The translations under genes were made by a program, and so were the position numbers. A stretch of 64,000 nucleotides of DNA, from assembly GCA_964357635.1 (NCBI GenBank), contig CAYHLZ010000001.1:198674-262673 (forward strand), read 5' to 3'. Shown here one piece after another: positions 6,913 to 42,015 of this stretch. The notes beneath the pieces were generated by a model, which was given only the letters and a program-made list of their open reading frames with translations, ran no database searches and was not told the origin of the DNA. Positions within the stretch are counted from its first letter, which is position 1, and each line of letters opens with the position of its first letter. Source of the stretch: an uncultured Candidatus Saccharibacteria bacterium. GTDB lineage: Bacteria > Patescibacteriota > Minisyncoccia > Phycocordibacterales > Zambryskibacteraceae.

Positions 6913-7490
6913 TGCAAAACTATTACGCAAGTAGAGACCACGAGAAGATGAAAGAGGTTCTAATGTCCCCAGATAGAGAGGGTCCAGCTATTCACTACTA
7001 CATGATTCGCGGAGGAAGTGAAAAAACCAATATCACTGTCTGGGAAATGGGTTTAATTGGTCGAGAATATATTAAAACCTATGGACATTATCATGTTGGT
7101 GATGTAAATGAAAAATACACTGTTCTTCAAGGAAAAGGCATCATTATTATCCAAGAAAGGTCTTTGGACGTTAACGGTATTCCTATTGATGATGAAATAA
7201 GTAATTTTAGTGCCAAATTTGTGAAGAGTGGAGACGAGATAAATATACCTAAAAATGCTGGACACTTAATGGTAAATGTTGGTAAAGTTTGGCTCGTAAT
7301 GTCTGACAACTCCCCAGTCAGTTTTGAAGAAAAAGATCCTGTGAGCCTACCAGGACATGCCGATTACGAACCCTTTCGCAAACTTAGAGGAGCTGCTTAC
7401 TATGTGGTAGAAAAAGACGGTAAACCCACTCTAGTGAAGAATCCTAATTATAAAAAAGTTCCAAGTGCCAGTATTTCTAATCACCCATAA
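6912..7490 (+). CDS. pgiA: Cupin-type (archaeal-type) glucose-6-phosphate isomerase
   Basis: Motifs align with Pyrococcus cPGI: TYGHYH (TKGHFH), EKYTVLQGKG (EVYVALKGKG), IPKNAGHLMVNVG (VPPYWAHRTVNIG) and the C-terminal VKNPNYKK (VDNPRWKK). Metal ligands H, H, E, H are conserved. Confidence 0.75.
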   Translation: MQNYYASRDHEKMKEVLMSPDREGPAIHYYMIRGGSEKTNITVWEMGLIGREYIKTYGHYHVGDVNEKYTVLQGKGIIIIQERSLDVNGIPIDDEISNFSAKFVKSGDEINIPKNAGHLMVNVGKVWLVMSDNSPVSFEEKDPVSLPGHADYEPFRKLRGAAYYVVEKDGKPTLVKNPNYKKVPSASISNHP

Positions 7491-13400: not shown

Positions 13401-16260
13401 ATGCAGACGCATTAATGTTAATAAAAATTGAAATAAGCAATAATGACCCGGCTTGCGTAAACCACATAGTTGAATAAATCTCAAGTAAGGTACCTTTCAG
13501 TTTTTTTGCCACTTCCCCAGAACTTTGCCATCTAAGCATGTGCTTTCTGGTCAAATATTTATGGATAAAAGTGCTTACAATGGCACTAATGGCAACTCCA
13601 GCGTTATAAAAAAGAAACACACCACTTACCAGCACCTGCACCACAGCAAATACTGATTCGTTGATAAACGAACTAATTTTATTTTTCAAAGTGGAACTTC
13701 TTTCCCATTTAAGCAGTCCAATACAAACAGAAAATATAAATGGAGAACTCAAGATTATGATTATATAAACACTCCCCCAATACATGTTTGGACTAGATAA
13801 GCCCCATGACAGTAAGAGAAAAGCTAGTGAAACTATCGGAATAGAGCTTCTTCTTAGGTTATCGAAAATTTTCCACCTTGAAACAAAAGAAAATTCATTT
13901 TTTATTAAAGTGCCGTTACCGAGCCGGACTCTTGGAAAAAGCCAGTCAATAATTTGCCAATCGCCACGTGTCCACCGATGTAGACGTGAGACATATTCAT
14001 GATATTGAGAAGGAAAATCATCAGATAATTGGATGTCTGTAGCTAGTCCTGCTCGAGCATACAATCCCTCTAAGAGGTCATGACTAAGAACCGTATTGTC
14101 AGGAATCTTCCCTGCCATCGTTTTTTCAAAAATGTCTATATCATAGATACCCTTACCGAAAAATATTCCACTTTTAAACAAATCTTGATACACATCAGCC
14201 ACCACACTAGAATACGAGTCTATGCCAGAGGCGGAGGAAAAAAATTTAGAAAATAATGATTTGTTAGATGTTTTTAGTGACGTGGATACGCGAGGCTGGA
14301 TTATGCCATAACCACCACGTACAACATTTGTTTTCTCATCAAGGATAGCTCTATTGAGAGGATGTGCGATGCACCCAATGAGCTGACTTGCCGACTCTTT
14401 GGGCATTCGCGTGTCTTCATCTAGAGTTATTACATACTTAATGTTTCTAGGTAATTGAGAGAATTTATTGTTATCAATTATGTATGTGGTGTTTTGAGAC
14501 CCACGAATTAGCTGGTTAAACTCTCTTAATTTGCCTCTCTTTCTTTCCCAACCCATAAAGACGTTTTCTTTTGGGTTCCACAGGCGTTTCCTGTAAAATA
14601 GAAAAAACTTTCTTTCTCCGTTAGAGTATTTTTTATTTAGTTTATTAATCTCATCAGATACATAGATGGTTAGCCCTCTATCTTTCGGCATACTTTCCTC
14701 TAGTGCATCGGTAAAGTCCATCAATAATCCGAAAAAGATATTTTTGTCCTTATTACTTAGGTAATTTACTTCAAGTCGCCTTAATAGTTCGTTAATAGAA
14801 CTTATGTTTCTAAACATCCCCGACGTAACCACAAAGGTTCTAAATTCATCAGGTACTCCATTTTTAAAATCAAACTTAGGTAATGATTTTATCGGCAAAA
14901 AACTTACGATTAAAGAATTTAATAAGTTGGTACCCACTTCACTACTCAAAATAAAGATGAGGACAGCTGTTAGAGCCAAATACAGTCCGCTGGTATATTG
15001 AGCAACATAAAAGGAGACAAGTGCTGATATGCTAAGACAAACCAAAGAGATGCTAGTAAAATAAAATAAACTGGGATTATTGAGCAGTAAACGCCCATAT
15101 TTTTCAAAAAAAGTAGGTTTATAGCTAAACTTTTTTTCAAGTTCATCTCTGCCTTGCCCAATAAGATAGTGGCCGATATGTGCTTTTATAGAACCGTCAT
15201 CTTCAATCTGCCCACTTTCTGTTTTTTTACTGTGAGTAAGTTTAAGAGCATGTTTGGCAATTTCTGCTTCGTGTATACCAGTTACGTCAGCAACCCGAAC
15301 AACCGCATCTTTGTATAGGTTCTTGGTGCGATCATCAAGTGCCGTATAAACTCCAGCGGGATCATTGTGAAATATTTTATCAACCACGTTTACGTTACCC
15401 ACAAAGTCGCCCCACTGCACTTGGTTTAACCATCGCAAGCTCTCAAAAATATTTGATATCAAAACTCTTCTCTTATCTCGCTCATCACCTTCAATCTTGG
15501 CTAAATCCTTTATATCAATCCCCTGCTTTAATAGGTTTGACTTCAACCATTTGGTAACAGGGCGCGCTACGGGTTCGTAATGGGACAGTCTCTGCAGAAG
15601 ATAGAAGCCGAAATTTACAGGGATAATGTTGTATTTTGAAGTAAGTTCGTGAATAATCTCGGAGAATTGAGAGATGCGTTTTTGTTTAGTTTTTTTTATT
15701 ATTTGTTTAAACCAGAACTCTGCTTCATTAAACTCTATGGAAGAAAGAAGAATTCGTTCTATTAGATATTGAATGTTCTCCACCAGAATTATCTTTAAAA
15801 TAGTGGGAGTGGCATAGAGCTCTCGGAGAGTTAGTGGGGTGTGTTTCTGATAGGAGTTTATGAACTTCTCCATTACTTGTTTATCAATTTCGTTCTTGTT
15901 TGCCTTCAGTAATTCAGAAAAAATGAAGTAGGTTCTGGGAACAAAGTTTTGTCCACTCTTAGAAATCTGTGGTAATTTCAGAAATTCTTTTTTTACAATT
16001 CCATTTTCAATGTCAGAAATCGCATTTTCTATAATATAAAAATTATCAACCAACTCTGCCTCTTGAGTCAGGTAACTAGAACTGGTAATACTTTTTATAA
16101 AATTATTGTAGAGTTTGTAGGTACTGCGAACCTTTTTTTGTAAGTTATTAAAAAATGATTCAGCGGGTTTCGGTTTGGAAAAAAGAATGCCTCTTTTACT
16201 TAAATCTGAAGCAAGTTTATCAATTTTCTTAAGATTAACTGCTTCTAATAAATCGCTCAT
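7477..16260 (-). CDS. Giant membrane glycosyltransferase/glycoside phosphorylase, cyclic beta-1,2-glucan synthetase (NdvB/Cgs)-like, GT84 plus GH94
   Basis: At 2927 aa it has an N-terminal region with multiple TM helices flanking a GT domain carrying the ITLDEDTRMP DxD motif, then a large C-terminal GH94-like (cellobiose-phosphorylase-like) beta-sandwich plus (alpha/alpha)6 region. One uninterrupted ORF. Confidence 0.7.
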   Translation of the reverse strand: MSDLLEAVNLKKIDKLASDLSKRGILFSKPKPAESFFNNLQKKVRSTYKLYNNFIKSITSSSYLTQEAELVDNFYIIENAISDIENGIVKKEFLKLPQISKSGQNFVPRTYFIFSELLKANKNEIDKQVMEKFINSYQKHTPLTLRELYATPTILKIILVENIQYLIERILLSSIEFNEAEFWFKQIIKKTKQKRISQFSEIIHELTSKYNIIPVNFGFYLLQRLSHYEPVARPVTKWLKSNLLKQGIDIKDLAKIEGDERDKRRVLISNIFESLRWLNQVQWGDFVGNVNVVDKIFHNDPAGVYTALDDRTKNLYKDAVVRVADVTGIHEAEIAKHALKLTHSKKTESGQIEDDGSIKAHIGHYLIGQGRDELEKKFSYKPTFFEKYGRLLLNNPSLFYFTSISLVCLSISALVSFYVAQYTSGLYLALTAVLIFILSSEVGTNLLNSLIVSFLPIKSLPKFDFKNGVPDEFRTFVVTSGMFRNISSINELLRRLEVNYLSNKDKNIFFGLLMDFTDALEESMPKDRGLTIYVSDEINKLNKKYSNGERKFFLFYRKRLWNPKENVFMGWERKRGKLREFNQLIRGSQNTTYIIDNNKFSQLPRNIKYVITLDEDTRMPKESASQLIGCIAHPLNRAILDEKTNVVRGGYGIIQPRVSTSLKTSNKSLFSKFFSSASGIDSYSSVVADVYQDLFKSGIFFGKGIYDIDIFEKTMAGKIPDNTVLSHDLLEGLYARAGLATDIQLSDDFPSQYHEYVSRLHRWTRGDWQIIDWLFPRVRLGNGTLIKNEFSFVSRWKIFDNLRRSSIPIVSLAFLLLSWGLSSPNMYWGSVYIIIILSSPFIFSVCIGLLKWERSSTLKNKISSFINESVFAVVQVLVSGVFLFYNAGVAISAIVSTFIHKYLTRKHMLRWQSSGEVAKKLKGTLLEIYSTMWFTQAGSLLLISIFININASAFPIYIWSVLWILSPLIAYGLGRPRPDTISFMPKERELLRHIACKSSRYFLEFTNAENNWLIPDHFQEEKTLIASNNTTSPTNIGMGLLSLLSAYDFGYIGISELKTRLTNTFNSLNKLERYQGHFYNWYDIKLLKPLIPQYVSSVDSANFLASIITLKQGILDILKKPTIGENVVQGLSDILVSIAKESSVVIENIRRDKTKKHDNEKVEQLNKIINSSSKALNSLKQHNIELTLSGFEEILFSLSDSSHELKKLITEMVAVDSKENMQDIYYWIQNLENLISLYRKETRDLFSFSKIVSDFPAIHKLKRYKNFSIKYEKLLHLLNQCPTLLDLKESRLSLAVRDLDIEVEIESYSLEETDKESVRTWFLGILEIVEISEQNASKLFDSYNKLVVQCDKIFEETDFRFLYNKERGLFHIGYNATFNKIDSSYYDFLASETNIISFIAVLKNQAPKKHWFHLNRKFVKSGSNPVLYSWGGSLFEHVTSLIFLDVTNESLLGKNARAAVKAHISYAKKYGIPWGMGESAYNLLNANKNYEYQTFGVPNIGLKRSLGDYLVVAPYTTVLSLLFEPKNSIKNLEKLMFQGGVSSYGFYDAIDYTPSKERKRGGVATKVYYAHHQGFIMSNLNNALNDKRIRKLFNEDPLVASVEVLLEEKVRAITPVKPTKITSRLLIDYSNTTDSGHLVKQYIPLRTQTPRFAFLSNGNYSVSISNTGCGYSKYNNLLLTRFKEDAVLEGSGTFLYVRNLDDNSLWSPTFHPTKVLGKNYKVIFSENKAEFYQTNKGIDTILKISVPPEDNVEIRELTITNQNEFQQSFEVSSYGEVVLASQGEDIGHPAYQRLFIKSEFLKEHKSLVFTRNNLPDKTKKFYFAHFMADNKVKNEVIKYNTSRESFLGRRGSTVSPYIFNHEESVSHDKDYTLDSIFSLQKKINLKPNESTKIIFINAYSTNLEDLTSVIKKYRNLKNPVSIIDKANQESVHALKRFGISSEQALIFQELASRILAGGYLRDKPTNVSPAFPMIHSLWKYGISGDTPIIVVKIKDIEDINFIKNVLLCYRYLTYKGLNIDIVIYNEHPGGYIKTLHDEIDFIIRYNKLVENNHSNGKVFHLKTNFMSVEDRHSILFNASAIFDSEEGNLEYQIKTRNRKPNIKPLPNIFKSSKELPEKEVALKPSNSLSFYNGLGGFDETKKEYVMHLSQDLKTPASWVNVISNPQFGFMVSEGGSSHTWSVDSYDNRLTSWAADSLLDASGEILYIRDEKTGELWSPTPYPLGEDRSYTVKHGRGYSTFEHKRGSLEHKLLMFVPTTEKIKIFKLTIKNTGTETRNLSVTGFFELVLGVNYEQTKRSLITSTDNKTKAVITQNIVRNHFQGNLVFLDMNKGNYAISTSREEFFGRGGSVKSPEALKKEKLSNEIKYEPDHSVSLQTVVNLKSGEEKSVLILLGEGENIEEIRKLVTTYRKLPKITEALAQVERYWDQISRSITISTPDESLDIMFNDWILYQILSSRIFTKAGYSQPSGAFGFRDQLQDITAFIYSNPDLVRKVILDAAEHQFVEGDVQTWWHEHNNFGMRSVMSDHQLWLPHIVCSYVEITGDFSIFDERMPFLEGPALDFKNKKEWVGVPEITKGKYSLFEHCTRAIDKSLFFGEHGLPLIGKGDWNDGFNEVGINGKGESVWSGFFLYSILTRFSEVCTKLNDVEHLDKYRNIAESIKNALEIHGWDGSWYRRAYFDDGAPLGSHLNEEIKIDSITQSWAVLSRAGTEERAREAMDAVEKYLMPDKKLLKLLAPPIAKSSMRVGYTGDYPPGVRENGSQYNHAALWVAQAFATLGEGDKAKNIIDLINPINRSRSPEGVTQYRVEPYVVASDIYSKPSYEGRGGWTWYTGAAGLMYRTTLEFILGIKISKSKLIINPCIPKDWKEFKVSYFFKSTSYKITVKNPLGLSRGVKSIAVNGKMLDSKEIILSSDGKIYNVEVIMGD

Positions 16261-16316
16261 TCTATATGTTTGTGCTAAGGAGCAGGTTTAAACATCTTTA
16301 TTTTTAAAAAACTAAA

Positions 16317-20213: not shown

Positions 20214-23200
20214 TTAACCCCCGAAAAGATTTTTCAGGAAGTTTATAAGTCCTCCTCCACTCTCGCTTTCCCCTACTGCTGCAGGCAAACGATCAAGATC
20301 AATATCTTCTTCGCCTTCCTCGTCAACATTTTCCTCTTCGTTGTTGGTGGTTGGAGTATTAGAGTTTGATTCTGGCAGAGCAGACGCTAGAGGTTCGTGC
20401 GGAACATTCGGATTCTTTGACCACTCAATAAGTTCAGGCAGTTGTATTGCTAGGTCTGGACACTCGAGCATGTTGATCCATCGCAGTGTCGTCTGATAGA
20501 CAAGACCTGTTGGACCGTTGAGATTCCACGGGGTGAGAACTTCGCCGGCAAACTTCTCTTGGAATGCTCTAAGCACTTCAAGAGTTTGCGGACCATAGAC
20601 ACCGGTAATCGGGAGGTTGGAATGCATCCACTTGTTCAGGAACGTTTGAAGAAGTTTGACTTGCTCCACGTCATTGTTGGCAGAACCGAAGCGGATGAAT
20701 CTGTCCATGTAGAGTAAACAGCTCTCGCGAAATGTGGAAGCTCCCAAAACCTGGCCGTTACCACTTCTGAAGTCTCTACTGGTACTTGATGGATTAGATG
20801 GCTCGTCAGCAAGTGTTGGAGGGTTAGGATCAGACTCGTCGTCGTCATTTGGGTCGTAAGAAGACGAATTGGAAGCATCACTGTCAGTATGACACCCAGG
20901 ATCCTCTGAATCGGTTGCTTGGTCTCCATCGTTGTCATCGTCGTCGGAACACTGAGGAAGTTCTTGTTGTGATGGACAATCCTCTGTGCTGCTTTGATTA
21001 CCTTCAACATACGGGCACACGTCAACTACAACGGGGGCATTGAATCCGACACAATAGTAAGTCTGTCCAGCGACCACAGGGTCAATTAAGTCATAGTTGT
21101 CGTAATTCAGAACATCGTCACTGCAGTAGAATTCGGCTGAAACATCCTGGTCTTGGGGTTCTGTGGTATCTCCGGAAAACGCAATATAATTGGAGTCAAA
21201 TTGTTCGCGTAGCCAGACCAGAGAACCTGCTGGAACAGAGACGCTCGTGGTAAATGGAGTCCAGGCTTCGCCACCTGCTTCTACGCTGTCTCCGGGGTTT
21301 GAAGTGCCGTTAGGAGCCCACTCAAAGGTCCATTCTTCAATATGACAATCTTGGGTTTCGTCTTCAAGATCATCTGCTAGGAAGTTAGGAACAGTGGTAG
21401 AAGTGATATCGGCACTACCCTCTCCCCAGTTCGGAAGGTCATCTTCAGAATCGCAGACAATTTTGGAGGCGTATATAGTTGCAGTGTCTGGATCTGGGTA
21501 ATTCGGAACACATTCGTTTTCTACCTCATGGTAACCTTCTTCGCATTCTTCTGGAGGTGGAGGCACACAGGCATTTTCATTAAGTGAGAGTTTGTAGAGA
21601 AGTCCTGCTGGGTTACTTGCTGGGTCGGCACTTTGCTCGGCTGACTCCCAGTTAGTTACCGTGATTTCTAGCGTGTTTAATCCGCTGATAAGAAGCGAGC
21701 TTACATCGTAAGAATCTTGAGTAGCGAGTTGGAAATTATTCTGGTCAAATACAACGGGCAGAGAATTTCCATTTAATTTGACACTGTAGTTGTTATCAGC
21801 TGCGACATCAAGAGTTCCACCAGTCGGTGTTCCAACGATGGCAAATGTCTTGGTAAATACTTTTGTCAGGTCGCCGTCATTCGTCGGGGCTTCAACCGGA
21901 TCGGTTGCCCAGATCCAAGTGGCGTCGGGAATAGATGCAGTCCAAGCTGGATGAATAAAGGTGAGTTCGGATGCGTATCCATCTCCGTCACTAGTAGTAT
22001 CGTCAGAAACTAAAGTCTGAGAACTTACTACATCTTCACAAGGGGTTTGTTTCGGCACACAGACCAGACTTGCGTTATCAAGGTATCCACCAAAGCTGGT
22101 GTCGGTGCCGTTGTCAGAGAATTCAATTTTAGTCGTTGGATTAGTGGCTGTAAATGTGCGGCTGATGCTTTCCCAAACTGTATTGCCATTTAGGGTTCCG
22201 TCTGTCGCAACATTTGCGCCAAGTACCGAGCCATCAACTTTTACCTGCAAACTATTGTCTGCCAAATTGCGTCCAGGTCTTGGAGAATAATTGAAGTTAA
22301 GAGCGTATTCTTCCCCTACGATAGTAGGAATGTTCTGCCAAATTGTAACTGGATGGTCTCCGTCTAGTTCAGCATGTTGTGCTCCTGATGCTGGTGATCC
22401 AGCAACATTATTCTGAATCTCAAGACCAAGAGTTCCACCCTCTTGTGGGGTTACCCAAGCGACGAACCATTCAAGAAGAGGGTTTGAATCAGGAATGATG
22501 CTCCATGTCCCGTTACCTAAAACTGGCGTCTCAAAACCTCCGTTTTCTAGAAGGTTAAGTTCTGGCACACAAGCCTGAGGTGGCTCAACGTCATCATTGG
22601 TGACTGTGCATGTTTTCTCATCACCTAGCGCCATATTGCCAGAACAGTCTTCAGAAAATGTCGGAACACCGTAGCCCGGAGCAATTGACTCCGCAACACC
22701 ATAGGGACCTACACCAAGAATTACAAGAGTACCCTCTTCAGAGCCGGGAAATTGTCCTGCAGGGTTTGCGTTAACACCGTTTACAATAAGTGAAAAATCG
22801 TCGGCTTCTGCCGTACCGTTGTCATCATTAACCACGTGTTTGATAACTGTAAGAGTCGGGAGTTTTGAATTGGTTATGGTGCAGGTGTATGGTCCATTGC
22901 CATTATCTACAGGAATGTTGTTGCAATGATTAGCATTCTCTCCTGGTCGATCACTTGAGTAAGTGGCTGTGTAGCCGGATTCTGAATCCTCTACAACATC
23001 GTAAACGCCGTTAGCAAGTCCTGTAATTAGATTTGTACCGTCCGCCTCAAACTGATATCCGATTGGAGGAACTTCTCCTTGCTTATCAACAGTGAAACTG
23101 AAATCGTCTGCGCCTGCTTCCTCGTCACCGACAAAGACTTTCTTTACAATCAGTTGGATCGGCTCGTTTGTGAAGGTGCAAGTAATATCTTCATAGAGCG

Positions 23201-24059
23201 AAACGTTAACAGTGGCGGTACCTGTCTCTAGATCAATCTCGGCAGTTTCATCATCACAGTAAATACCTGTTAAGACGTAGCCATCTTTTTGGCTTTCCGT
23301 AACGGTGTAAATCCCTTCAACTAGATTGCCCAGCTTATGTTTTTCACCACCACCCAGAGAGAAGTTATCAGAGCCTTCTACGTTTGAAGAAAAGTCAAAC
23401 TTATCCTTAGTTGGTGAAGTTACGACCTTTCTTACTGCAATGTTGCCGAGCCTATCACCCTTAACGAGGACCCCATCTACACGGAAATATTCACTGGAAT
23501 CACTGGAAGATTGTCTAAAGCGTAGTATAAACGAGGAGTTATTTAGAGAGTCAGACAAATCAACAGACTGCATCGTACTCCAGCTTTCGTGCACATTGTT
23601 GTTTCCGTCGTCCAATTCGTGGGTTGCAAGCGATGTCCAGCCGGACGCTGAAGTGCAACTACCTGAAGCCCTGTATTCTACCGTGCCACTTTCGCTATCT
23701 TCGGCATCTGCGTCACCTCGCCAGAAATAATGTAAAAAGAGATTGGTATGTCCTGAAGTATCTATCGTTCTACAAATCCAGTCATCTTCGCCGATCTTTG
23801 CAAAAAGATCACCCTGTGGACTTACCTGATCTTCACCGCTTATAGCACCGGGTTGAGGAATGGTAGAAGAATCGTTGTCTGTCCCTTCTTCATTCCACCC
23901 ACTGATATCATCTGGATCAGAACCTGCAGTAAAACCATCACTAAAAACAGTTGCTGCGGAAACTGTTTTTGGAACCAAGAAGGCTAAGGAAACAAAAAGC
24001 CCGAACACGAGAAAAGTGTCTAGAATAAAACTTATTTTCTTCATATTTTTTGGTATCAA
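20214..24059 (-). CDS. Very large secreted cell-surface protein with repeated Ig-like/prealbumin-like (DUF11/SdrD-B-like) modules, a peptidoglycan-binding domain and an acidic C-terminal tail
   Basis: Signal peptide; recurrent T-C-T-(F/V/I)-TN modules (ITCTFTNEP, TCTITNSK, TCTVTNDD); PG_binding_1-like segment (LLQTFLNKWMHSNLPITGVYGPQTLEVLRAFQ); Asp/Glu/Ser-rich stretches. 1281 aa. Confidence 0.6.
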   Translation of the reverse strand: MIPKNMKKISFILDTFLVFGLFVSLAFLVPKTVSAATVFSDGFTAGSDPDDISGWNEEGTDNDSSTIPQPGAISGEDQVSPQGDLFAKIGEDDWICRTIDTSGHTNLFLHYFWRGDADAEDSESGTVEYRASGSCTSASGWTSLATHELDDGNNNVHESWSTMQSVDLSDSLNNSSFILRFRQSSSDSSEYFRVDGVLVKGDRLGNIAVRKVVTSPTKDKFDFSSNVEGSDNFSLGGGEKHKLGNLVEGIYTVTESQKDGYVLTGIYCDDETAEIDLETGTATVNVSLYEDITCTFTNEPIQLIVKKVFVGDEEAGADDFSFTVDKQGEVPPIGYQFEADGTNLITGLANGVYDVVEDSESGYTATYSSDRPGENANHCNNIPVDNGNGPYTCTITNSKLPTLTVIKHVVNDDNGTAEADDFSLIVNGVNANPAGQFPGSEEGTLVILGVGPYGVAESIAPGYGVPTFSEDCSGNMALGDEKTCTVTNDDVEPPQACVPELNLLENGGFETPVLGNGTWSIIPDSNPLLEWFVAWVTPQEGGTLGLEIQNNVAGSPASGAQHAELDGDHPVTIWQNIPTIVGEEYALNFNYSPRPGRNLADNSLQVKVDGSVLGANVATDGTLNGNTVWESISRTFTATNPTTKIEFSDNGTDTSFGGYLDNASLVCVPKQTPCEDVVSSQTLVSDDTTSDGDGYASELTFIHPAWTASIPDATWIWATDPVEAPTNDGDLTKVFTKTFAIVGTPTGGTLDVAADNNYSVKLNGNSLPVVFDQNNFQLATQDSYDVSSLLISGLNTLEITVTNWESAEQSADPASNPAGLLYKLSLNENACVPPPPEECEEGYHEVENECVPNYPDPDTATIYASKIVCDSEDDLPNWGEGSADITSTTVPNFLADDLEDETQDCHIEEWTFEWAPNGTSNPGDSVEAGGEAWTPFTTSVSVPAGSLVWLREQFDSNYIAFSGDTTEPQDQDVSAEFYCSDDVLNYDNYDLIDPVVAGQTYYCVGFNAPVVVDVCPYVEGNQSSTEDCPSQQELPQCSDDDDNDGDQATDSEDPGCHTDSDASNSSSYDPNDDDESDPNPPTLADEPSNPSSTSRDFRSGNGQVLGASTFRESCLLYMDRFIRFGSANNDVEQVKLLQTFLNKWMHSNLPITGVYGPQTLEVLRAFQEKFAGEVLTPWNLNGPTGLVYQTTLRWINMLECPDLAIQLPELIEWSKNPNVPHEPLASALPESNSNTPTTNNEEENVDEEGEEDIDLDRLPAAVGESESGGGLINFLKNLFGG

Positions 24060-24213
24060 GCTTATTAATTAAATAGGAATGGGAGCTCTCTAAAAGAGAG
24101 GATACTCCTATATGCCTTTGGGTGTCAAATGAGGATTTGACAATTGACAAGACTGGTTATTTTTTATATGGTCAAGGCGGTTTAGCGCCATTCCGGCGCT
24201 TATGGAGACTGCG

Positions 24214-34549: not shown

Positions 34550-34981
34550 CTACCAATTTTTACAACATTCAATAAGTTTTCTGCCTATCTCCTTCAGACG
34601 GTCATTTTTGTAAAAAAGATAAACGGTAAAAAATACAATCCACACCAAAATAATAATTCCCAAATCTCTTAACCATTCGCCGTTGACCAAAAGGACGAGA
34701 GAAATCGCCCAAAAAAGTGAAATAACAAATGGGAACTTGAAAATCTGCACCATGTCACTCTTACCGGAAAAGAAGTAGTACATTAAACCAACCGCGCTTC
34801 CACCTAAAAGAATGGCTAAAACAAGAGAATCTACTTCGGCGCCCGTAAAACGAAGAATTAGGAGCGTAAGCCAAGTAAGAGTAACGGAGGCGCAGAGAGC
34901 GCAAAAATCTTTCCTTGTTATTGTTCTGGCAATGAGTGAAAGAACGAAAAAACCCACCATTAAGATTAGAGCAAGCGTCAT
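34550..34981 (-). CDS. Integral membrane protein (4 TM)
   Basis: Hydrophobic profile; a 4-bp overlap with the upstream gene suggests an operon with the CxxC membrane protein. Confidence 0.4.
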   Translation of the reverse strand: MTLALILMVGFFVLSLIARTITRKDFCALCASVTLTWLTLLILRFTGAEVDSLVLAILLGGSAVGLMYYFFSGKSDMVQIFKFPFVISLFWAISLVLLVNGEWLRDLGIIILVWIVFFTVYLFYKNDRLKEIGRKLIECCKNW

Positions 34982-35496
34982 GACAAGAGTTCAACCACGA
35001 CTGACGCAACGACAAGAAGGAGGATGGCAATGGAAAGTCCTTGATACGGAAGAGTTTGTTTCCTTGTTCTGGTGATAAATTTGCTTATCGGATGAGCAAG
35101 AAACATGAGCACTGACCCTAAAAGCGTTCCTGCCAAAAACAGATTAACGGTATAGGTGTTGTGGAACAGTGTGCCGTACTCGCCTAAAATTTTTACATAA
35201 AGAGGTCCGTAGTCTCTGATGAGTGGCATTATGGGAATAATCGTTCCGAGAAATATCACTAGCCAGATTATTTGTGGCTGGTAAGGTAGGTACTCTTTCT
35301 TGGGAAGTTTGGAGAGCCAAGACGAGAGCGCCACCGCGAACCCTCCAATGAGAACTCCAACAACGACAGAAGAAATTCCGAGTGAAGTAGCCAGTATCGC
35401 CAGAGCCCCCGCCCCAACAGTACAGAGAGGACAATGTGCCAGTGCAAGCTTCGGGAAAAGGATTGCGACAGGTATCGTTAAGAGAGTTTTTTTCAT
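34978..35496 (-). CDS. Membrane protein with an N-terminal HCPLC (CxxC) motif
   Basis: Signal/TM followed by LALAHCPLCTVGAG, then 4-5 TM segments; it sits downstream of the csoR-DUF305-DUF1573 genes. Confidence 0.4.
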   Translation of the reverse strand: MKKTLLTIPVAILFPKLALAHCPLCTVGAGALAILATSLGISSVVVGVLIGGFAVALSSWLSKLPKKEYLPYQPQIIWLVIFLGTIIPIMPLIRDYGPLYVKILGEYGTLFHNTYTVNLFLAGTLLGSVLMFLAHPISKFITRTRKQTLPYQGLSIAILLLVVASVVVELLS

Positions 35497-35499: not shown

Positions 35500-36018
35500 C
35501 TACAGTATAACCTCGGCCCTGATCTCAAGTTGGAGCGCTCCGCCATTCTCGTCCACAAGGTAAACATATCTTTCAATTACACCCACACCCGCCGGACCGT
35601 GTGCCGCAGGGTCAAAGACCACCTCAATAACTCTTTCTTCACCCACCTTCAGAATCTCATTTGCTTTTGGCACGCTGTTACCGTGTCCCGGCATGCCGAA
35701 AGGACCTCTTTTATTCTCACCGTTTATTATGTAGGCATTGGTACACATACAGGAAGTAACGACGCTGTCTACTCTGACATCTTGGTTACTCGTATTGGAA
35801 ACGGTGAAAGTCTTTTTTACCACACCGTCTTTCATGGCTATGGTACCGAAGTCGTATCTGGTTTCAGTTGCGCTTAATAGATTGTCAGAATTTACTTGAG
35901 CATCCGATGGTAAAACGGCGGTTTGATCGCCCTTGCCGAAGGAGAAAAGTCCGACAAAGAGCAGGGCTACAGCTGCTAGTGTTATAAGTGTCGTTTTCAT
36001 ATTACTTTGACCAAGCAT
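35500..36018 (-). CDS. DUF1573-like secreted protein
   Basis: Signal anchor; TFTVSNTSNQDVRV...VVTSCMCT motif typical of DUF1573 Ig-like proteins. Confidence 0.5.
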   Translation of the reverse strand: MLGQSNMKTTLITLAAVALLFVGLFSFGKGDQTAVLPSDAQVNSDNLLSATETRYDFGTIAMKDGVVKKTFTVSNTSNQDVRVDSVVTSCMCTNAYIINGENKRGPFGMPGHGNSVPKANEILKVGEERVIEVVFDPAAHGPAGVGVIERYVYLVDENGGALQLEIRAEVIL

Positions 36019-36598
36019 CGTACCAACCTCTCATCATCTGAATCTCACTTGACTGAGACGTGATGATGTTATCCGCAAGAGTTTTCATCTCCTCTCTGTC
36101 TGTACTTACTGCAAGCATCCTTGCCATCATAATCGCCATCTCGTGGTGTGGAATCATTTGAGATATGAACTCAAGGTCAAAATCTTCGGCCGCCCTAAGT
36201 TGACCCAAGTCTCCTTCCATACCCATCATACTCATACCCATACTGCCGTGACCCATCATCCCGCCCATGCCTGAAGAGTAGCTTGGTGTCCCGCCAAACC
36301 AATCCGCATACCACCCGCGCATATCTTTATTTTCTCTTTCCTGTGCCTCAATGATTCCCTGAGCGAGAGAAAGAATTTCTTGGCGCTTGGATCGCTCAAG
36401 TGCAAGTTTCGCCATGCTGATAGCTCCCTCGTGATGTGGAATCATTTCCTCTATGAAGTGCCTGTCAATATTTTGGCCCGTTATAATACTCGCCTGTCTC
36501 GTACCCATCATGGGGTAGGTGTTAAACCATGGTGCGATAAGAATACCTAAAATAACGCCCACAATTCCCGCTCCTAAATATTTTATGCTGTTGTCCAT
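36002..36598 (-). CDS. DUF305 family protein with a Met/Gly/His-rich linker (copper-resistance associated)
   Basis: Two DUF305 repeats (EEMIPHHEGAISMA and SQMIPHHEMAIMMA) separated by GMGGMMGHGSMGMSMMGMEG. Confidence 0.7.
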   Translation of the reverse strand: MDNSIKYLGAGIVGVILGILIAPWFNTYPMMGTRQASIITGQNIDRHFIEEMIPHHEGAISMAKLALERSKRQEILSLAQGIIEAQERENKDMRGWYADWFGGTPSYSSGMGGMMGHGSMGMSMMGMEGDLGQLRAAEDFDLEFISQMIPHHEMAIMMARMLAVSTDREEMKTLADNIITSQSSEIQMMRGWYDAWSK

Positions 36599-36599
36599 A

Positions 36600-36872
36600 T
36601 TATTTTTTCTTTTGGGAAACGTTATAAATTTTTAAAATTTCTCTGACCGCTTTGTCACCCTTGCCGTGCTTCATCTGGTGAGCCACGTGAGTCTCCAAGT
36701 GGTTCTGGAGCATCAGCGCCTCAAAGGCTCCCACGGCGCTTTTAATTGCTTGCGCTTGGGTGATGATGTCAACACAGTACTTCTCTTCCTCAACCATTCT
36801 TTTAACACCCCTCACTTGTCCCTCAACGCGGTTCAATCGGCTTTTTAATTTGTTTTTCATATCTGGTTTCAT
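36600..36872 (-). CDS. csoR: CsoR/RcnR-family metal-sensing transcriptional repressor
   Basis: 90 aa; RLNRVEGQVRGVKRMVEEEKYCVDIITQ...H...H pattern carrying the conserved Cys and His metal ligands. Its own promoter contains the operator palindrome. Confidence 0.8.
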   Translation of the reverse strand: MKPDMKNKLKSRLNRVEGQVRGVKRMVEEEKYCVDIITQAQAIKSAVGAFEALMLQNHLETHVAHQMKHGKGDKAVREILKIYNVSQKKK

Positions 36873-36883: not shown

Positions 36884-36904
36884 ATATACCCCCATCGGGT
36901 ATAT
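36884..36904 (-). promoter_or_regulatory. CsoR-type operator in the csoR promoter spacer (copy 1)
   Basis: Minus-strand sequence TTGCAA-TATACCCGATGGGGGTA-TATACT places the pseudo-palindrome ATATACCCGATGGGGGTATAT between -35 and -10, 12 bp upstream of the csoR ATG. Confidence 0.7.
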
Positions 36905-36948
36905 TGCAAGCAGTCTATAAAGACCTCTGTGTATTACTTTATAATTTC

Positions 36949-39075
36949 TCATGCTTTAACTAAGTCCCTCTCAACACGCTTCAGAAGCACCGCATTTGTA
37001 GCCACAATTATCGAAGAAATACTCATGAGAAGTGCCGCGAATTCCGGGCGGAGCATAATACCGAAGCTTGGATACAAGATTCCACCAGCTACTGGTATAG
37101 CTAGAATATTGTAGATTGAAGCCCAGAAAAGGTTTTGCTTCATCTTCCAAACTGTCGCCTTGCTTAAGGTTATTGCTCGAAGAATGTCTAACGGATCAGA
37201 TTTCATAAGGACAACCTTTGCTGTCTCAATCGCCACATCAGTACCTGCGCCAATTGCTATGCCAACATCGGCTTGAGCAAGCGCAGGAGCATCGTTGACA
37301 CCGTCACCGACCATGGCGGTAAATTTTCCTTCCTGCTGAAGTTTTTTGACGTAGTTGGCTTTATCCTCTGGCATCACTTCGGCAAACACTCTATCTATAC
37401 CGATCTGTTTCGCCACCCTTTCTGCCGTCGTCTTGTTGTCTCCGGTAATCATTACGGTTTCAATCCCAAGGTTCTTTAACTTTCTTACTGCTTCACTCGC
37501 ATTTTGCTTTATCGGATCGGCGGCTCCGATAACCGCTTTTACAGAACCGTCAATAGCCAATACCATGATGGTTTCTCCTCGGTCTAGGAACTCATTAATT
37601 TTTTGTTCCAACCCGCCAAGAACAATTTTATTGTCGCGCATGAGCTTCACTGTCCCGACAAGTATATTTTTATCGAGAACTGTCGCTTTTACTCCAAGTC
37701 CGGAAAGGTTCTCGAACCTTTCAACATTTTGAGGCAGTTCCAACTTTCGAGATTTAAGCTCATCAAGCACAGCTTGAGCTAAAGGATGAGATGATTTCGC
37801 TTCTGCTGCACCGACCAGTCGAAGCGCCTCTTCCTCACTAAAACCTTCCACAGTCGCTATATCCGTCACTTTGGGTTTTCCTAGAGTCAAGGTGCCTGTT
37901 TTGTCTAAGACGATTGCTTGAATTTTTGATACTTGTTCAAGGGTCGGAGCGTCCTTGATAAGAATATTGTGCTTTGCCCCCAAGCCGGTCCCAACTGCAA
38001 CGGCCGTTGGCGTAGCAAGTCCAAGAGCATCAGGACAAGCGATGACAACAGTAGCGATAGCAAAAGAGAGCGCGAGCATTATGGAGGACCCTACTACAAA
38101 AAACCAAATGCCAAAGACCAAAAGACCCGACCCTACCGCCGCAATAACGAGATACTTGGCAAACCTGTCAGCAATTTTTTGTCCTGGTGCCTTTGAGTTC
38201 TGCGCCTCTTCAACCATGCGGACAATTTGGGCGAGGGCGGTATCTTTGCCAATTTTTGTCGCCTTAAACCTTACCGAGCCGGCGGTGTTTATAGAGCCAC
38301 CAATTACCTGATCTCCATACTTTTTAGCGACTGGAAGCGACTCTCCGGTAACTAAAGACTCGTCAATGGCTGTTTCGCCGAGAATGATTTCACCGTCAAC
38401 CGGAACTTTGTCGCCCGGCTTAAGGATGACTATATCGCCAAGTTCTATCTCGGAAGTAGAAACGAGTGTTTCTATGCCATTCTTCAAGATTCTTGCTTGG
38501 GGTGGTACGAGATTAAAAAGTGCCTGCAAGGCGTCTGTTGTTCCGCGCCGAGATTTCATCTCCATCCAGTGACCGAACAGCACGAAAGTAATAAGCATCG
38601 CGGCCGCTTCATAGTATGAATCTGCGCCACCAGTCAAAGTCAAAAGAACGCTGAAACCGTATGCTGCCGTAATACCAACCGCAATAAGGACAGCCATGTT
38701 GAGGGTTTTATTTTTCAGGGCGAAGTAGGTTGAATATAGGAATATCCACCCGGAGTAGAAAAATACCGGCGTTGAGAGGATAAAGAGAAGCCACGGGAGC
38801 GGTATCGGAGACGGGAGATTAAGCTTCAAAAACTCTGTGCCTAAAGGTGAATACAGGATGATTGGAATTGTTAATATAAGCGAGAAGAAAAACTTATTCC
38901 GAATATCTATTTCCATGAGACGCGCCATCTCCCGACCAGCAAGACCGGTGTGATCCATACCCATCGTCATCGACATGCTCATTTTGAACTTCTTCCAAAA
39001 ATTCATTTTAGATACATTGCCCATCACATGTCCCGAGTGAACATGGTGTTTTTCGTTATGGTGATTGTGGTTCAT
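36949..39075 (-). CDS. P1B-type heavy-metal (probably copper) translocating ATPase; start placed at MNHNHH
   Basis: DKTGTLT, GDGVNDAPAL, TGES and a TM6 CPD(ALGLATP) motif. His-rich then Met-rich N-terminus (NHNHHNEKHHVHSGH...MSMSMTMGMDH). About 708 aa. Confidence 0.8.
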   Translation of the reverse strand: MNHNHHNEKHHVHSGHVMGNVSKMNFWKKFKMSMSMTMGMDHTGLAGREMARLMEIDIRNKFFFSLILTIPIILYSPLGTEFLKLNLPSPIPLPWLLFILSTPVFFYSGWIFLYSTYFALKNKTLNMAVLIAVGITAAYGFSVLLTLTGGADSYYEAAAMLITFVLFGHWMEMKSRRGTTDALQALFNLVPPQARILKNGIETLVSTSEIELGDIVILKPGDKVPVDGEIILGETAIDESLVTGESLPVAKKYGDQVIGGSINTAGSVRFKATKIGKDTALAQIVRMVEEAQNSKAPGQKIADRFAKYLVIAAVGSGLLVFGIWFFVVGSSIMLALSFAIATVVIACPDALGLATPTAVAVGTGLGAKHNILIKDAPTLEQVSKIQAIVLDKTGTLTLGKPKVTDIATVEGFSEEEALRLVGAAEAKSSHPLAQAVLDELKSRKLELPQNVERFENLSGLGVKATVLDKNILVGTVKLMRDNKIVLGGLEQKINEFLDRGETIMVLAIDGSVKAVIGAADPIKQNASEAVRKLKNLGIETVMITGDNKTTAERVAKQIGIDRVFAEVMPEDKANYVKKLQQEGKFTAMVGDGVNDAPALAQADVGIAIGAGTDVAIETAKVVLMKSDPLDILRAITLSKATVWKMKQNLFWASIYNILAIPVAGGILYPSFGIMLRPEFAALLMSISSIIVATNAVLLKRVERDLVKA

Positions 39076-39083
39076 GTATTTTT

Positions 39084-39542
39084 TTACTCCAAGTTCCATT
39101 TAAACAAACGCTCGGAGACTCCGCCAATGTTCTTGATTTTTAATTCAAGATAGGATGGCAGAGGATTTGTCGATTTAAATATCAAAACTCCTTCGCGATG
39201 ATGACCTCCTGGCTCTGACCCTTCCCATTTAACAGCCTTATATTCTTTGCCGTTGCCATCAACCAGTACGGCAATTTTTGCCATATCCTGATCCAGTTCA
39301 ACTGAATGTGTATCTAAAACAATATCAAATTTCCATTCTTTTGAATCAACAGATAAAACATATGGGGTAACTGTGACCACTACGTTTGCTTGATTATCGG
39401 TTCTTGATTCCCATTTTTGCTCTGTATCAGAAACCGAAGAATCACTTTGAGCCGGACTGGCGGCTGGCTTGGGATTATAGAAAAATAGCAATCCGACTAT
39501 AAACGCAAGCGCTAAAATGAATATTGATACGGTTTTATACAT
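39084..39542 (-). CDS. Secreted hypothetical protein (possible metal-binding beta-sandwich), upstream of the ATPase
   Basis: Signal anchor; GGHHREG motif; 152 aa. Confidence 0.35.
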   Translation of the reverse strand: MYKTVSIFILALAFIVGLLFFYNPKPAASPAQSDSSVSDTEQKWESRTDNQANVVVTVTPYVLSVDSKEWKFDIVLDTHSVELDQDMAKIAVLVDGNGKEYKAVKWEGSEPGGHHREGVLIFKSTNPLPSYLELKIKNIGGVSERLFKWNLE

Positions 39543-39981
39543 GATATCTTTTAAATTTAATAACTTTACTACCTATAAAAATAATGCCGAATAAGTTAAA
39601 GGCAATACCAATCCAGAAAATTTCAATCTGGTACTGGGCAATGATAACAAGAGCTCCAGCAATACCTAATATAGGCACAATATTGGCAAGATAGTGGGCA
39701 CAGCAAGAGACCATCGAGAGAGTAGAAGTTGTGCCTGTCACCGCTACTGTCTTATCTTTCATGATCATGTTACCCGTCTTCACCAAATACTTCAGGTATG
39801 AGTACAGCCCAATCTGAATGCCGAAGCCGACTGACAAACTCACAATAAAATACCAAAAATTGGAAAACTGGTTTTGAGCGAAGTCCCAACCGGAGACTAG
39901 CGTAAGAACGGTAAAATAGACACCAAGTAAAAGTCCGCTTGCCAGCACTCCGTACACAATTGCTTTGACTGAATTTCCCAT
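39535..39981 (-). CDS. Membrane protein with a CCAHY motif; the real start is probably the internal Met, while the ORF runs to 40206
   Basis: The first 75 codons of the long ORF are low-complexity and overlap the upstream small gene. From MGNSVKAIVYG onward there are 4 TM segments. Confidence 0.4.
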   Translation of the reverse strand: MGNSVKAIVYGVLASGLLLGVYFTVLTLVSGWDFAQNQFSNFWYFIVSLSVGFGIQIGLYSYLKYLVKTGNMIMKDKTVAVTGTTSTLSMVSCCAHYLANIVPILGIAGALVIIAQYQIEIFWIGIAFNLFGIIFIGSKVIKFKRYHV

Positions 39982-40024: not shown

Positions 40025-40240
40025 TTATAACCCCTCGCGCTCCAGTTGGCGACGATAGATAGCGCAGATGCCGGCAGAGATTGATATGAGTGTGAGAATG
40101 ATTGCGTCGTAATAGCAGTGCTGTTGCGTAAATCCAAAAATAGTTCCGTTCTCACCGGCAAGCCACGCTCCAATAAGTGCGAGCGCGCCCCAAATACCGG
40201 TAACAATGGATATCCAGTGAATGAATGATGATTTTTTCAT
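40025..40240 (-). CDS. Small 2-TM membrane protein (71 aa)
   Basis: Two hydrophobic helices and a conserved-looking QQHCYYD. Confidence 0.35.
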   Translation of the reverse strand: MKKSSFIHWISIVTGIWGALALIGAWLAGENGTIFGFTQQHCYYDAIILTLISISAGICAIYRRQLEREGL

Positions 40241-40265: not shown

Positions 40266-41225
40266 TTATATACCGCACCCGCCTTGTTGCCTCTTCGGTG
40301 TAACTGTTTCTCCCGTGCCAACCCCGCACCCGCCCTCTCCTCTTTGTTGCCCCGATTGGCTCACTTGGGCAACGATTCTTGCGTAACCTTGAGCGCTCGA
40401 ATAATCGGCACCAAGCACCTTTTGAGGACTTATATCTTTCCATTCGATTCCACTCTTTTCCATATAAGACCCAATAGTCACGTAGGTGTCCGGAAACCAA
40501 TAAGAATTAACGATGAGAGCAGCTTTCCACATATCCTCTTCGCTTGCGCCTTGTGAGGCCATAAGTTCAAGAAGTCCGAGCATAGCCATGCCGTGGTTAC
40601 AGTCGGGAAAATGAACAGAATTGGCGCAACAGGGTCTGTATATGCCACGCGAGATTCTCTCTACCAGAGACTGCTGTTCGGGCGTCAGATTAAAAAATGT
40701 ATGTTTGCTGTAGTGGTCCATGGGATCTCCTTTTGCGATAGTCCAGCCCCCCGTTGAAGCAAAATTTCCGGCTCCGCCGTAGGAAGGATTTGTCATCTCA
40801 CCAGTCTCTAGAATTGGATTTGAGTTCGCGAGCCCGAGTACCCAGAATAGATTCAGGAGATACCCGGCATTGTCCTGAGTAATTTTGAGCTGGCCGTTGT
40901 TCTGTCCGAGAAGCAGATTCTTGTATTCTTCGGTGAATGCGCCTCTTTTTTCGTAGATGGCCTTGAATTTGTCGGCATCAATTGCGCCTAGGCTTGCGAG
41001 CTTGGCGCCGAGATCACTCCAAGTAACAGGCAAAACAAATCCTTCAGGTGGTAGAACTTTTTTCTCTAATTCTCTGATTTGTCTTTGCTCTGATGCGCCA
41101 AGAGAGTCGGCTCTTTCTTGATTTATTATTTTTGAATCTGTTGTATAAATTAAGGCACTGGCAAGAATTGTTGCGGAAATGACTATGCTCGCCGGAATCA
41201 AATTGTTTCTCGAATCCAGTTTCAT
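40266..41225 (-). CDS. Membrane-anchored Cys/His-rich protein (candidate copper-binding), first gene of the operator-controlled ATPase operon
   Basis: N-terminal TM; PCCANSVHFPDCNHGMAM and C-terminal GGCGVGTG...GGCGI motifs. The promoter immediately upstream carries the operator palindrome. Confidence 0.4.
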   Translation of the reverse strand: MKLDSRNNLIPASIVISATILASALIYTTDSKIINQERADSLGASEQRQIRELEKKVLPPEGFVLPVTWSDLGAKLASLGAIDADKFKAIYEKRGAFTEEYKNLLLGQNNGQLKITQDNAGYLLNLFWVLGLANSNPILETGEMTNPSYGGAGNFASTGGWTIAKGDPMDHYSKHTFFNLTPEQQSLVERISRGIYRPCCANSVHFPDCNHGMAMLGLLELMASQGASEEDMWKAALIVNSYWFPDTYVTIGSYMEKSGIEWKDISPQKVLGADYSSAQGYARIVAQVSQSGQQRGEGGCGVGTGETVTPKRQQGGCGI

Positions 41226-41236: not shown

Positions 41237-41257
41237 ATATACCCCCCTTAGGTATAT
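41237..41257 (-). promoter_or_regulatory. CsoR-type operator (copy 2) in the promoter of the ATPase operon
   Basis: Minus-strand sequence TTGCAA-TATACCTAAGGGGGGTA-TATGTT. Its 21-nt core ATATACCTAAGGGGGGTATAT matches copy 1. Confidence 0.65.
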
Positions 41258-41303
41258 TGCAAGTCCCCTATTAAAACTGGTGTGGATTACTTCTCCTACT
41301 TAA

Positions 41304-41453: not shown

Positions 41454-41504
41454 ATTTCAATTCTACCACTGAAAAAGAAGTGTCTTAGGTTTATTATTTA
41501 ATAC

Positions 41505-41533
41505 TTGACACTTTGCCTAGTATCTGCTATACT
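41505..41533 (+). promoter_or_regulatory. Sigma70-type promoter P1 (TTGACA-N17-TATACT) driving sRNA-like unit 1
   Basis: TTGACA at 41505-41510 and TATACT at 41528-41533, separated by a 17-nt spacer. Confidence 0.65.
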
Positions 41534-41539
41534 ACTCAT

Positions 41540-41728
41540 GTGGCTCTTTGGATTGCTCCTGGCGCTCGAAACATGTTAGACCTGTGGTTTGCAGACCGAA
41601 CCTTGGTCTGACAGGTTCCTCGATGATGTCGCCTTGAGGGACGACAAAGTCCGAGATAGCGCTTCGTTGAAGCTATACCGAGAACCATACTGGGCCCGGG
41701 GGCGAAAACTCCCGGGCTCTTTTTATTT
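41540..41728 (+). ncRNA. Candidate small non-coding RNA 1 (about 185 nt), family unknown
   Basis: Consensus promoter immediately upstream. An intrinsic terminator (GCCCGGGGG-cgaaaact-CCCGGGC then CTTTTTATTT) at 41692-41728. Several internal hairpins; no credible ORF. Confidence 0.5.
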
Positions 41729-41755
41729 GTTTGAAAAGTGCTTATTATTTGACAC

Positions 41756-41784
41756 TTGACACTTACTCTTGTGTCTGCTATACT
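41756..41784 (+). promoter_or_regulatory. Sigma70-type promoter P2, near-identical to P1
   Basis: TTGACA at 41756-41761 (a second overlapping TTGACA at 41749-41754) and TATACT at 41779-41784. The TCTGCTATACT block is shared with P1. Confidence 0.65.
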
Positions 41785-41790
41785 CCACAG

Positions 41791-42015
41791 TGGACTGGCT
41801 GAAAGGAGAGTGTCTTCAACAACGACCTGAATCGCTCGTCAAATCTTTATTTCAACACCAGGACCTGCATCATCATCACCGGCACTTCGACCGACGGCAT
41901 CACCGGCGGCGCGCCGCGCGACACGGCCGAGGGCACGAAGGAGTACTAGCTCCCGAGTGCACGGCCCCACGGGCCCGGGAAGGACTTCAAACTTCCCGGG
42001 CCTGTTTCATTTTTA
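41791..42015 (+). ncRNA. Candidate small non-coding RNA 2 (about 225 nt), with a GC-rich core, family unknown
   Basis: Promoter P2 upstream. Terminator GGCCCGGGAAG-gacttcaaa-CTTCCCGGGCC then TGTTTCATTTTT at 41972-42015. A convergent gene follows, so it is not a 5' leader. Confidence 0.5.

Follow-up and report, generated by a model that had tools for sequence, protein, structure and literature searches.

A CPD-type P1B ATPase of the CopB lineage and its predicted copper-resistance cluster in a Patescibacteria-group bacterium

Both the classes of P1B-type ATPases and the substrates predicted for them lean largely on the CPx motif of transmembrane helix 4 (TM4; TM6 in an older numbering). In the definition given by Arguello in 2003, the P1B-3 (CopB) class is reportedly characterised by CPH in TM4, GYN(X)4P in TM5, MSxST in TM6, and a His-rich N-terminus. 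The subject of the present analysis is a pump with CPD at the TM4 position, encoded at 36949..39075 on the minus strand of a 64-kb stretch of DNA (the window) from an uncultured bacterium of the Patescibacteria group. Pumps with this motif have been described before: Cubillas et al. 2017 (PMC5552934) assigned three Rhizobiales proteins, from Xanthobacter, Nitrobacter, and Bradyrhizobium, to a subtype VIc, named P1B-3a, which was grouped with CopB in a maximum-likelihood tree. The initial annotation of the window had suggested that the motif may define an atypical subgroup, and had named placement in a known subgroup with the same motif as the finding that would speak against this. The pump does sit in an atypical subgroup, but that subgroup is the P1B-3a already reported within the CopB group (PMC5552934); the CPD subgroup is not new, and the pump is a further member of the subtype described in 2017. 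It was predicted to be an intact and functional metal-exporting ATPase of the CopB lineage, which probably exports copper as a member of a CsoR-controlled copper-resistance cluster.

Integrity of the pump and its CPD motif

The gene was recognised by its open reading frame and by Pfam, TIGR, and PDB matches, and lies on the minus strand, the plus strand of 36949-39075 being riddled with stops. The frame extends over 36949..39099, which gives 716 amino acids (aa) from an ATG at 39099 and 708 aa from an ATG at 39075. The latter is the likely start, because close homologues open with MNHNHH, the gene upstream has its stop at 39084, and in the public annotation of the contig (NCBI GCA_038057835.1, JBBUCI010000001.1, a Patescibacteria-group metagenome-assembled genome, MAG) the pump has 708 aa. 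Residues are numbered here in the 716-aa frame (minus 8 in the 708-aa frame). Pfam detected an E1-E2_ATPase domain (1.1e-54) and a HAD-type Hydrolase domain (7.3e-36) and nothing else, and the NCBIfam models TIGR01525 and TIGR01511 scored 605 and 588 bits, respectively, with TIGR01525 and the Pfam domains exceeding their cutoffs. A motif scan located the DKTGT phosphorylation motif with Asp399 (37891..37905, minus strand), and the further catalytic motifs are intact (TGES 251, SSHPL 436, TGDN 552, and GDGVNDAP 598). Hydropathy is compatible with the eight-helix P1B topology (MA, MB, and M1-M6), as are the full-length alignment to LpCopA and the helices of an AlphaFold2 model, so that the features of subclass P1B, namely the catalytic motifs, eight helices, a CPx-type M4, and the HP motif within SSHPL, were all found.

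The CPD motif is formed by Cys355-Pro356-Asp357 (codons TGT CCT GAT, 38029..38037, minus strand) within a TM4 sequence that reads VIACPDALGLATP, exactly as quoted in the initial annotation, and CPD in place of CPC or CPH was confirmed; Cys355 is the sole cysteine of the whole pump. It had been proposed alternatively that a sequencing error had turned TGT into GAT. An error of sequencing or assembly, or a decaying pseudogene, is favoured only by the fact that textbook classifications seldom feature the motif, whereas CPD was present in all 120 nearest protein clusters (81-91% identity, mostly from Parcubacteria, Paceibacterota, and Minisyncoccia MAGs) and in 79 of the 80 best loci (71-89% identity) of a scan with one genome per species, which are independent samples; the lone non-CPD locus is a fragmented pseudogene copy. 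Of the 79 CPD loci, 60 encode the Asp by GAT and 19 by GAC, and synonymous variants occur at the Cys and Pro positions too, which points to purifying selection on the amino acid and rules out an error in the Asp codon. In addition, the open frame is unbroken and its catalytic motifs are complete. An artefact is thus extremely improbable and was rejected, and comparison among relatives indicates that the CPD motif is real and under selection. A change from TGT to GAT requires two base changes, and that from CAT (His) to GAT one.

Placement in the CopB lineage, membrane site and N-terminus

A search of 1.84 billion representative proteins for relatives of the pump returned CPD pumps as its top four matches, from Roseiflexaceae (P0121, 62% identity), of the actinobacterial type (P0122, 50%), P0123 (54%), and from Candidatus Aquicultor (P0124, 46%), followed by CPC pumps at ~41-50% and CPH pumps at 41-44% identity. 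A neighbour-joining tree of 68 sequences (649 columns, 100 bootstraps, rooted with SPC-type and ZntA-like pumps) united CPD and CPH pumps in one clade with 87% bootstrap support, apart from 37 CPC pumps, and four CPH pumps (98% support) were nested inside a CPD grade. Compared to the CPC consensus, CPD and CPH pumps have eleven diagnostic residues in common, i.e., M62, M181 (within GHWxEM), A314, L317, A321, G325, P636, M653, A667, S693, and A703. Because of the joint clade and these residues, the pump is assigned, on sequence grounds, to the CopB (P1B-3) lineage, with Asp replacing the His of CPH.

The likeness to described CopB pumps, such as those of Enterococcus hirae and Archaeoglobus fulgidus, includes a His-rich N-terminus without HMA domain, the TM2 motif GHWxEM, and some ten further lineage residues, as well as membership of one clade, and the nucleotide-binding domain of A. 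fulgidus CopB (3sky) matched the pump at 1.2e-63. In contrast, the pump has Asp for the His of CPH, IYN for GYN, and MSISS for MSxST; with regard to P1B-3 in the sense of Arguello, the His-rich N-terminus and an ancestry shared with CPH pumps were thus found and CPH, GYN, and MSxST were absent. Other CPD subclades do have GYN, and the Aquicultor pump has MSAST.

A closer resemblance exists to the P1B-3a pumps of Rhizobiales and to the actinobacterial type, with which the window pump has in common CPD in TM4, YN(X)4P in TM5, MSxSS in TM6, and grouping with CopB. The actinobacterial family around P0122, in which at least 108 of 119 members carry CPD, has GYN, MSGSS, and a length of ~820 aa, and by these sequence features it matches the description by Cubillas et al. 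2017. The likeness of the window pump to the Rhizobiales subtype VIc was judged by that description, and the grouping in the tree was obtained with the feature-matched actinobacterial CPD pumps. Differences are evident in length (708 aa versus ~810-830), in IYN and MSISS where the other two types have GYN and MSGSS, and in overall sequence, the window pump being ~50% identical to the actinobacterial type. CPD and YN(X)4P of P1B-3a are present exactly, and the TM6 motif is MSxSS rather than MSGSS; two further P1B-3a features, few N-terminal His residues and a length at least ~80 residues above that of CopB, are lacking, as the pump is His-rich at its N-terminus, where the Rhizobiales proteins were described as His-poor, and has only 708 aa.

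Among solved structures, the best sequence and fold matches are CopA (P1B-1) pumps, LpCopA (3RFU) and AfCopA (7R0G). The pump aligns end to end with Legionella LpCopA (3rfu, 3.5e-157; residues 61-709 versus 76-734) with no large gaps. CPD stands opposite C382-P383-C384, with Asp357 exactly on C384; Met135, Glu180, and Asp311 fall on M148, E205, and D337, and Glu164 falls on E189. From the CopA structural literature, we take M148, E205, and D337 to be the copper entry site, E189 to be an exit residue, and C384 to be a metal ligand. In TM5, the motif NLFWASIYNILAIP (37093..37134, minus strand), an N(X)6YN(X)4P, contains Tyr663 and Asn664, which align with Y688 and N689 of LpCopA, and in TM6 the motif MSISSIIVATN (36994..37026, minus strand), an M(X)2SS(X)5N, contains Met692 and Ser696, which align with M717 and S721. 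The AlphaFold2 (AF2) model of the pump has a predicted confidence (pLDDT) of 71, with residues 1-48 forming a low-confidence tail, and its best structure match in Foldseek was AfCopA of A. fulgidus (7r0g, TM-score 0.71-0.76). Despite these matches and the presence of the CopA signatures of TM5 and TM6, membership in CopA/P1B-1 was rejected: the second Cys of CPC is replaced by Asp, an HMA domain with CxxC is absent, the pump lies outside the CPC clade, and it differs from CopA at 21 clade-diagnostic positions.

The N-terminus of the pump is His-rich and then Met-rich, as had been noted: the His-rich stretch NHNHHNEKHHVHSGH (residues 10-24, 39028..39072, minus strand) and the Met-rich motif MSMSMTMGMDH (residues 40-50, 38950..38982, minus strand), the latter ~20 residues ahead of the first membrane helix, were both recovered exactly, and residues 9-60 include eight His, nine Met, and no Cys. 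Pfam found neither HMA (PF00403), in agreement with the initial annotation, nor PF19335 in the pump, whose first 60 residues are free of Cys. A hidden N-terminal domain was considered and rejected, with no Pfam match and low confidence of the AF2 tail (pLDDT below 50 in the His-rich stretch). Among 79 close relatives, 60 keep the motif M[ST]M[ST]MxMGM[DE]H, and 49 have a CPMH...CPKCGM domain (PF19335). The missing folded N-terminal domain is therefore a variable feature within the clade and does not hold as a property of the subgroup, the more so as the actinobacterial relatives have a Pfam HMA match, yet no CxxC within their first 200 residues.

The predicted copper cluster and the probable metal transported

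The pump belongs to a ten-gene run on the minus strand, on which all features of the cluster lie, with the order 319 aa, 71 aa, 148 aa, 152 aa, pump, CsoR-family, DUF305/CopM, DUF1573, 172 aa, and 143 aa. The 90-aa CsoR/RcnR-family protein (36600..36872; PF02583, 8.8e-26) is a putative metal-sensing repressor. It is followed by a DUF305/CopM-family copper-binding protein of 198 aa with a hydrophobic N-terminus (36002..36598; PF03713, 2.1e-43), which scored 109 bits with the NCBIfam CopM model (cutoff 90) and matched the PDB structure of CopM (5fej) at 3.1e-40.

Two promoters carry the same type of operator. A CsoR-type operator, TTGCAATATACC-TAAG-GGGGGTATAT, lies at 41237..41262 in the promoter ahead of the 319-aa, 71-aa, 148-aa, 152-aa, and pump genes, and a second one, TTGCAATATACC-CGAT-GGGGGTATAT, at 36884..36909 ahead of the csoR-like gene, where a promoter scan found TTGCAA-17-TATACT. 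The 26-nucleotide pattern TTGCAATATACC-N4-GGGGGTATAT, an inverted repeat around a G/C tract that we take to be reminiscent of CsoR operators of Firmicutes, occurs exactly twice in the 64 kb, with no occurrence expected from 100 shuffles. By these two sites, the genes around the pump are divided into two runs that are predicted to be co-regulated. Beside a CsoR-like gene in four related loci (L003, L009, L019, and L075), a similar core, ATACC-N4-GGGGGTAT, was observed.

A comparable context is found around CPD pumps of other lineages. On the mobilizable plasmid pRHL3 of Rhodococcus jostii RHA1 (locus L091, NC_008271.1, 197926-218409), a CPD pump (WP_011600484.1), CsoR, and DUF305 occur in the same order as in the window; this CsoR has the canonical Cys-His-Cys ligands and an upstream ATACCCATCATGGGTAT palindrome, and an HMA protein, a two-component system, a multicopper oxidase, and a CPC pump are encoded nearby. 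A multicopper oxidase, CopZ, a CPC pump, a CPD pump, and an overlapping DUF305 gene were found together on a Rhodococcus chromosome, and a multicopper oxidase, an HMA protein, and a CsoR fragment at a Pseudarthrobacter CPD locus. It is on this gene context, i.e., the CsoR-family gene, the CopM homologue, the two operators, and the copper genes beside actinobacterial relatives, that the assignment of copper as the likely substrate is based, and the context argues, at the level of sequence comparison, for copper rather than for an altered specificity.

Several observations weigh against this assignment or limit it. Compared to Cys or His, Asp is the harder ligand, and it could bring about a different metal preference. 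The ligand positions of the window repressor are Cys33-His58-His62 and not the canonical Cys-His-Cys. A canonical CPC pump, ~44% identical to the CPD pump, is also present in 16-17 of the 80 Patescibacteria loci and in the Rhodococcus loci, and the CPD pump of Aquicultor lacks metal-related neighbours. The tree behind the CopB placement was built by neighbour-joining only, with four CPH sequences and without an experimentally characterised CopB. A full-text literature search returned no biochemical or genetic study of any CPD pump, the motif being mentioned only in the bioinformatic work of Cubillas et al. 2017.

Some of these points would suit an altered specificity, as also suggested in the initial annotation, in which Asp would adapt the site to an ion that is harder or divalent, such as Cu(II), Zn(II), Co(II), Ni(II), or Fe(II), and the pump would represent a distinct class rather than a Cu(I) pump. 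Asp357 replaces precisely the LpCopA ligand C384, and the repressor is of the Cys-His-His type, which we take to be the ligand set of the Ni/Co-sensing RcnR. However, the window repressor lacks the N-terminal His of RcnR, and its NCBIfam scores are far under the cutoffs of both RicR and RcnR; the CsoR-like genes beside CPD pumps in Patescibacteria are evenly split between Cys-His-His (16) and the Cu(I) type, Cys-His-Cys (16). The coexistence of CPD and CPC CopA pumps in the same loci suggests non-redundant roles, so that the CPD pump probably does more than duplicate CopA. On the other hand, copper-specific neighbours (multicopper oxidase, CopZ-like HMA protein, CopM/DUF305, and Cys-His-Cys CsoR) occur in three lineages, all other residues of the site are as in Cu(I) pumps (Cys355, Tyr663, Asn664, Met692, and Ser696), the Met-rich tail is typical of Cu(I)/Ag(I) binding, and the signatures of Zn/Co subgroups were not found (no TM6 Asp and no HEGxT). 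A change of specificity is accordingly considered improbable.

Soft ligands typical of Cu(I) are retained in the form of Cys355, Met692, and the Met-rich tail. Palmgren 2023 (PMC10654040), citing Purohit 2018, states that P1B-3 pumps are at present considered to transport Cu(I); by analogy with these CopB pumps, Cu(I) is favoured over Cu(II) as the substrate.

Partner genes, distribution and significance

Most of the remaining genes of the cluster encode small proteins outside known families. The 152-aa protein (39084..39542), whose gene stops 9 nucleotides before the pump start, has homologues in 25 of 80 related loci, and its AF2 model (pLDDT 82.6) shows an Ig-like beta-sandwich; an N-terminal helix is predicted for residues 3-21. 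His79 (in DTHS), Trp106, and Gly112-Gly-His114-His115 are invariant in the 25 homologues from genome loci; in a second set of 39, H79, H114, and H115 are strictly invariant and the others at least 90% conserved. A search for this protein found 1360 homologues, the few named ones being called hypothetical protein. A PDB profile search gave chance-level matches, Pfam gave only a sub-threshold resemblance to DUF5643, and Foldseek comparison of the model with the PDB yielded no match at E <= 0.001, only generic Ig-like folds. From the model and the conserved His residues, the protein is considered a candidate partner of the pump that would bind metal outside the cytoplasm. The gene for a hydrophobic 148-aa protein (39535..39981) with a conserved S-C93-C94-x-H96-Y-L-x-N motif always adjoins the 152-aa gene, and in relatives the two are found to one or the other side of the CPD pump. 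Upstream of it are genes for a small hydrophobic protein of 71 aa (40025-40240) and a 319-aa protein with a hydrophobic N-terminus (40266..41225), the first gene after the upstream operator; the latter protein occurs in 21 of 80 related loci and has the conserved motifs R-P-C199-C200-x-N...F-P-D-C209-N-H211-G and, at the C-terminus, G-x-C300-G. Downstream of DUF305 lie a DUF1573 protein of 166 aa (35500..36000) and two small hydrophobic proteins that end the cluster (34550-35496) and are poorly conserved in related loci: the 172-aa protein with HCPLC near its N-terminus, and the 143-aa protein with CALC and a C-terminal CC. No Pfam or NCBIfam family was found for the 319-aa, 148-aa, 71-aa, 172-aa, and 143-aa proteins.

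These neighbours bear on a second alternative, in which the pump would mainly deliver copper to exported partners (DUF305/CopM, the His-triad 152-aa protein, and the Cys-rich 319-aa protein), with a CPC CopA taking care of bulk detoxification. CopA2/CcoI-type pumps, which supply copper to cbb3 oxidase, are a precedent for such a role. The linkage of pump and DUF305 is kept from Patescibacteria to Rhodococcus, including overlapping genes, 23-25 of 80 loci contain the 148-aa/152-aa pair together with the pump, before or behind it, and a CPC pump coexists in many loci. CsoR-type repressors, on the other hand, turn genes on under excess copper, and such control therefore fits detoxification better than cofactor supply. 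No second P-type ATPase was found within the 64-kb window, a result that applies to the window and not to the whole genome. In Myxococcus xanthus, a DUF305 lipoprotein gene likewise adjoins the gene of a copper P-type ATPase in a copper-induced operon (PMC3707914), whereas CopM, as described in a bioRxiv modelling paper (10.1101/013581), is a copper-tolerance protein proposed to act as a "metal sponge" and not an enzyme requiring a cofactor. Taken together, a dedicated role in metallation appears unlikely.

It is similarly doubtful that CPD pumps constitute a functional class of P1B ATPases in their own right, rather than CopB with a tolerated substitution. The Asp after the TM4 proline is presumably at the position of Glu in the PEGL motif of Ca2+ and Na+/K+ pumps, and in such a class the carboxylate may change the ion or the oxidation state that is moved, e.g., to Cu(II) or another divalent metal. 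Alternatively, the pump may be dedicated to loading a conserved set of exported partners, namely DUF305/CopM, the Ig-like 152-aa protein with its His triad, the membrane protein with CCxH, and the protein with PCCxN...FPDCNHG. In Patescibacteria, such a system would amount to a hitherto undescribed module for metal handling in the envelope, controlled by a CsoR variant of the Cys-His-His type.

For the preferred role in copper export, the following sequence of events may be envisaged. The two identical operators overlap the promoters of both gene runs, one comprising the 319-aa, 71-aa, 148-aa, 152-aa, and pump genes and the other the csoR-like, DUF305/CopM, DUF1573, 172-aa, and 143-aa genes; judging from the behaviour of the CsoR family, the repressor would bind there and be released upon binding metal. 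Copper would be gathered by the disordered His- and Met-rich cytoplasmic tail and would enter past the conserved residues Met135, Glu180, and Asp311. Within the membrane it may be bound at Cys355/Asp357, Tyr663/Asn664, and Met692/Ser696, positions that were identified by alignment and for which a ligand role is presumed from CopA and CopB. Phosphorylation of Asp399 and the change from E1P to E2P would then lead to release outside, where the CopM-like protein, and perhaps the Ig-like protein with its His triad, may bind the released metal.

Divergent from the copper cluster, two tandem units 251 nucleotides apart were observed at 41491-42015 on the plus strand, with strong promoters (TTGACA-17-TATACT with an upstream TG) and a 48-nucleotide repeat that is 81% identical. 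Their GC-rich bodies of 190-225 nucleotides fold better than shuffled sequences (z -4.3 and -3.4); a terminator-like hairpin and its T run (41692-41719) close the first unit, and at the end of the second, an inverted repeat (41969-42005) precedes a T-rich stretch. Neither a convincing open reading frame nor an Rfam family was found in these units, which are candidate small RNAs by their sequence features. Elsewhere in the window, two very large open reading frames of 2936 aa (7480-16287) and 1284 aa (20217-24068) lie on the minus strand.

With regard to distribution, the pump is 71-91% identical across distant classes of Patescibacteria (Paceibacteria, Levybacteria, Woesebacteria, WWE3, and others; loci L001-L080), and relatives are also present in MAGs titled Nanoarchaeia, Bacteroidota, or Gammaproteobacteria. 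The high identity across distant classes and the odd titles suggest that the cluster has spread horizontally, that bins were mislabelled, or both; around the cluster of the window, neither GC content nor skew gave a signal of recent transfer, and no tRNA was found close to its borders. Beyond Patescibacteria, CPD pumps were detected in Actinobacteria, Chloroflexota, and one Asgard archaeon, the latter being a partial pump in a Hodarchaeales MAG (P0256) with a Met-rich MNMGMTMDMDH related to the motif of the window. Among actinobacterial relatives, those at 60% identity or above are carried on 42 plasmids of Rhodococcus, Mycolicibacterium, Nocardia, Streptomyces, Pseudarthrobacter, and Cryobacterium, and thousands of CPD proteins are held in databases under generic names only.

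For the window itself, the result is mainly a correct annotation. The conserved layout of pump, CsoR, and DUF305 provides a testable link between an exporter of the cytoplasmic membrane and the CopM family, and R. jostii RHA1, as a cultivable host of a CPD pump, makes the question of the CPD motif tractable. If Asp alters the preference for metal or oxidation state, annotations of metal resistance, including those on mobile elements of soil Actinobacteria, would need revision; if it leaves the preference unchanged, the third position of the CPx motif would tolerate Cys, His, or Asp in copper pumps.

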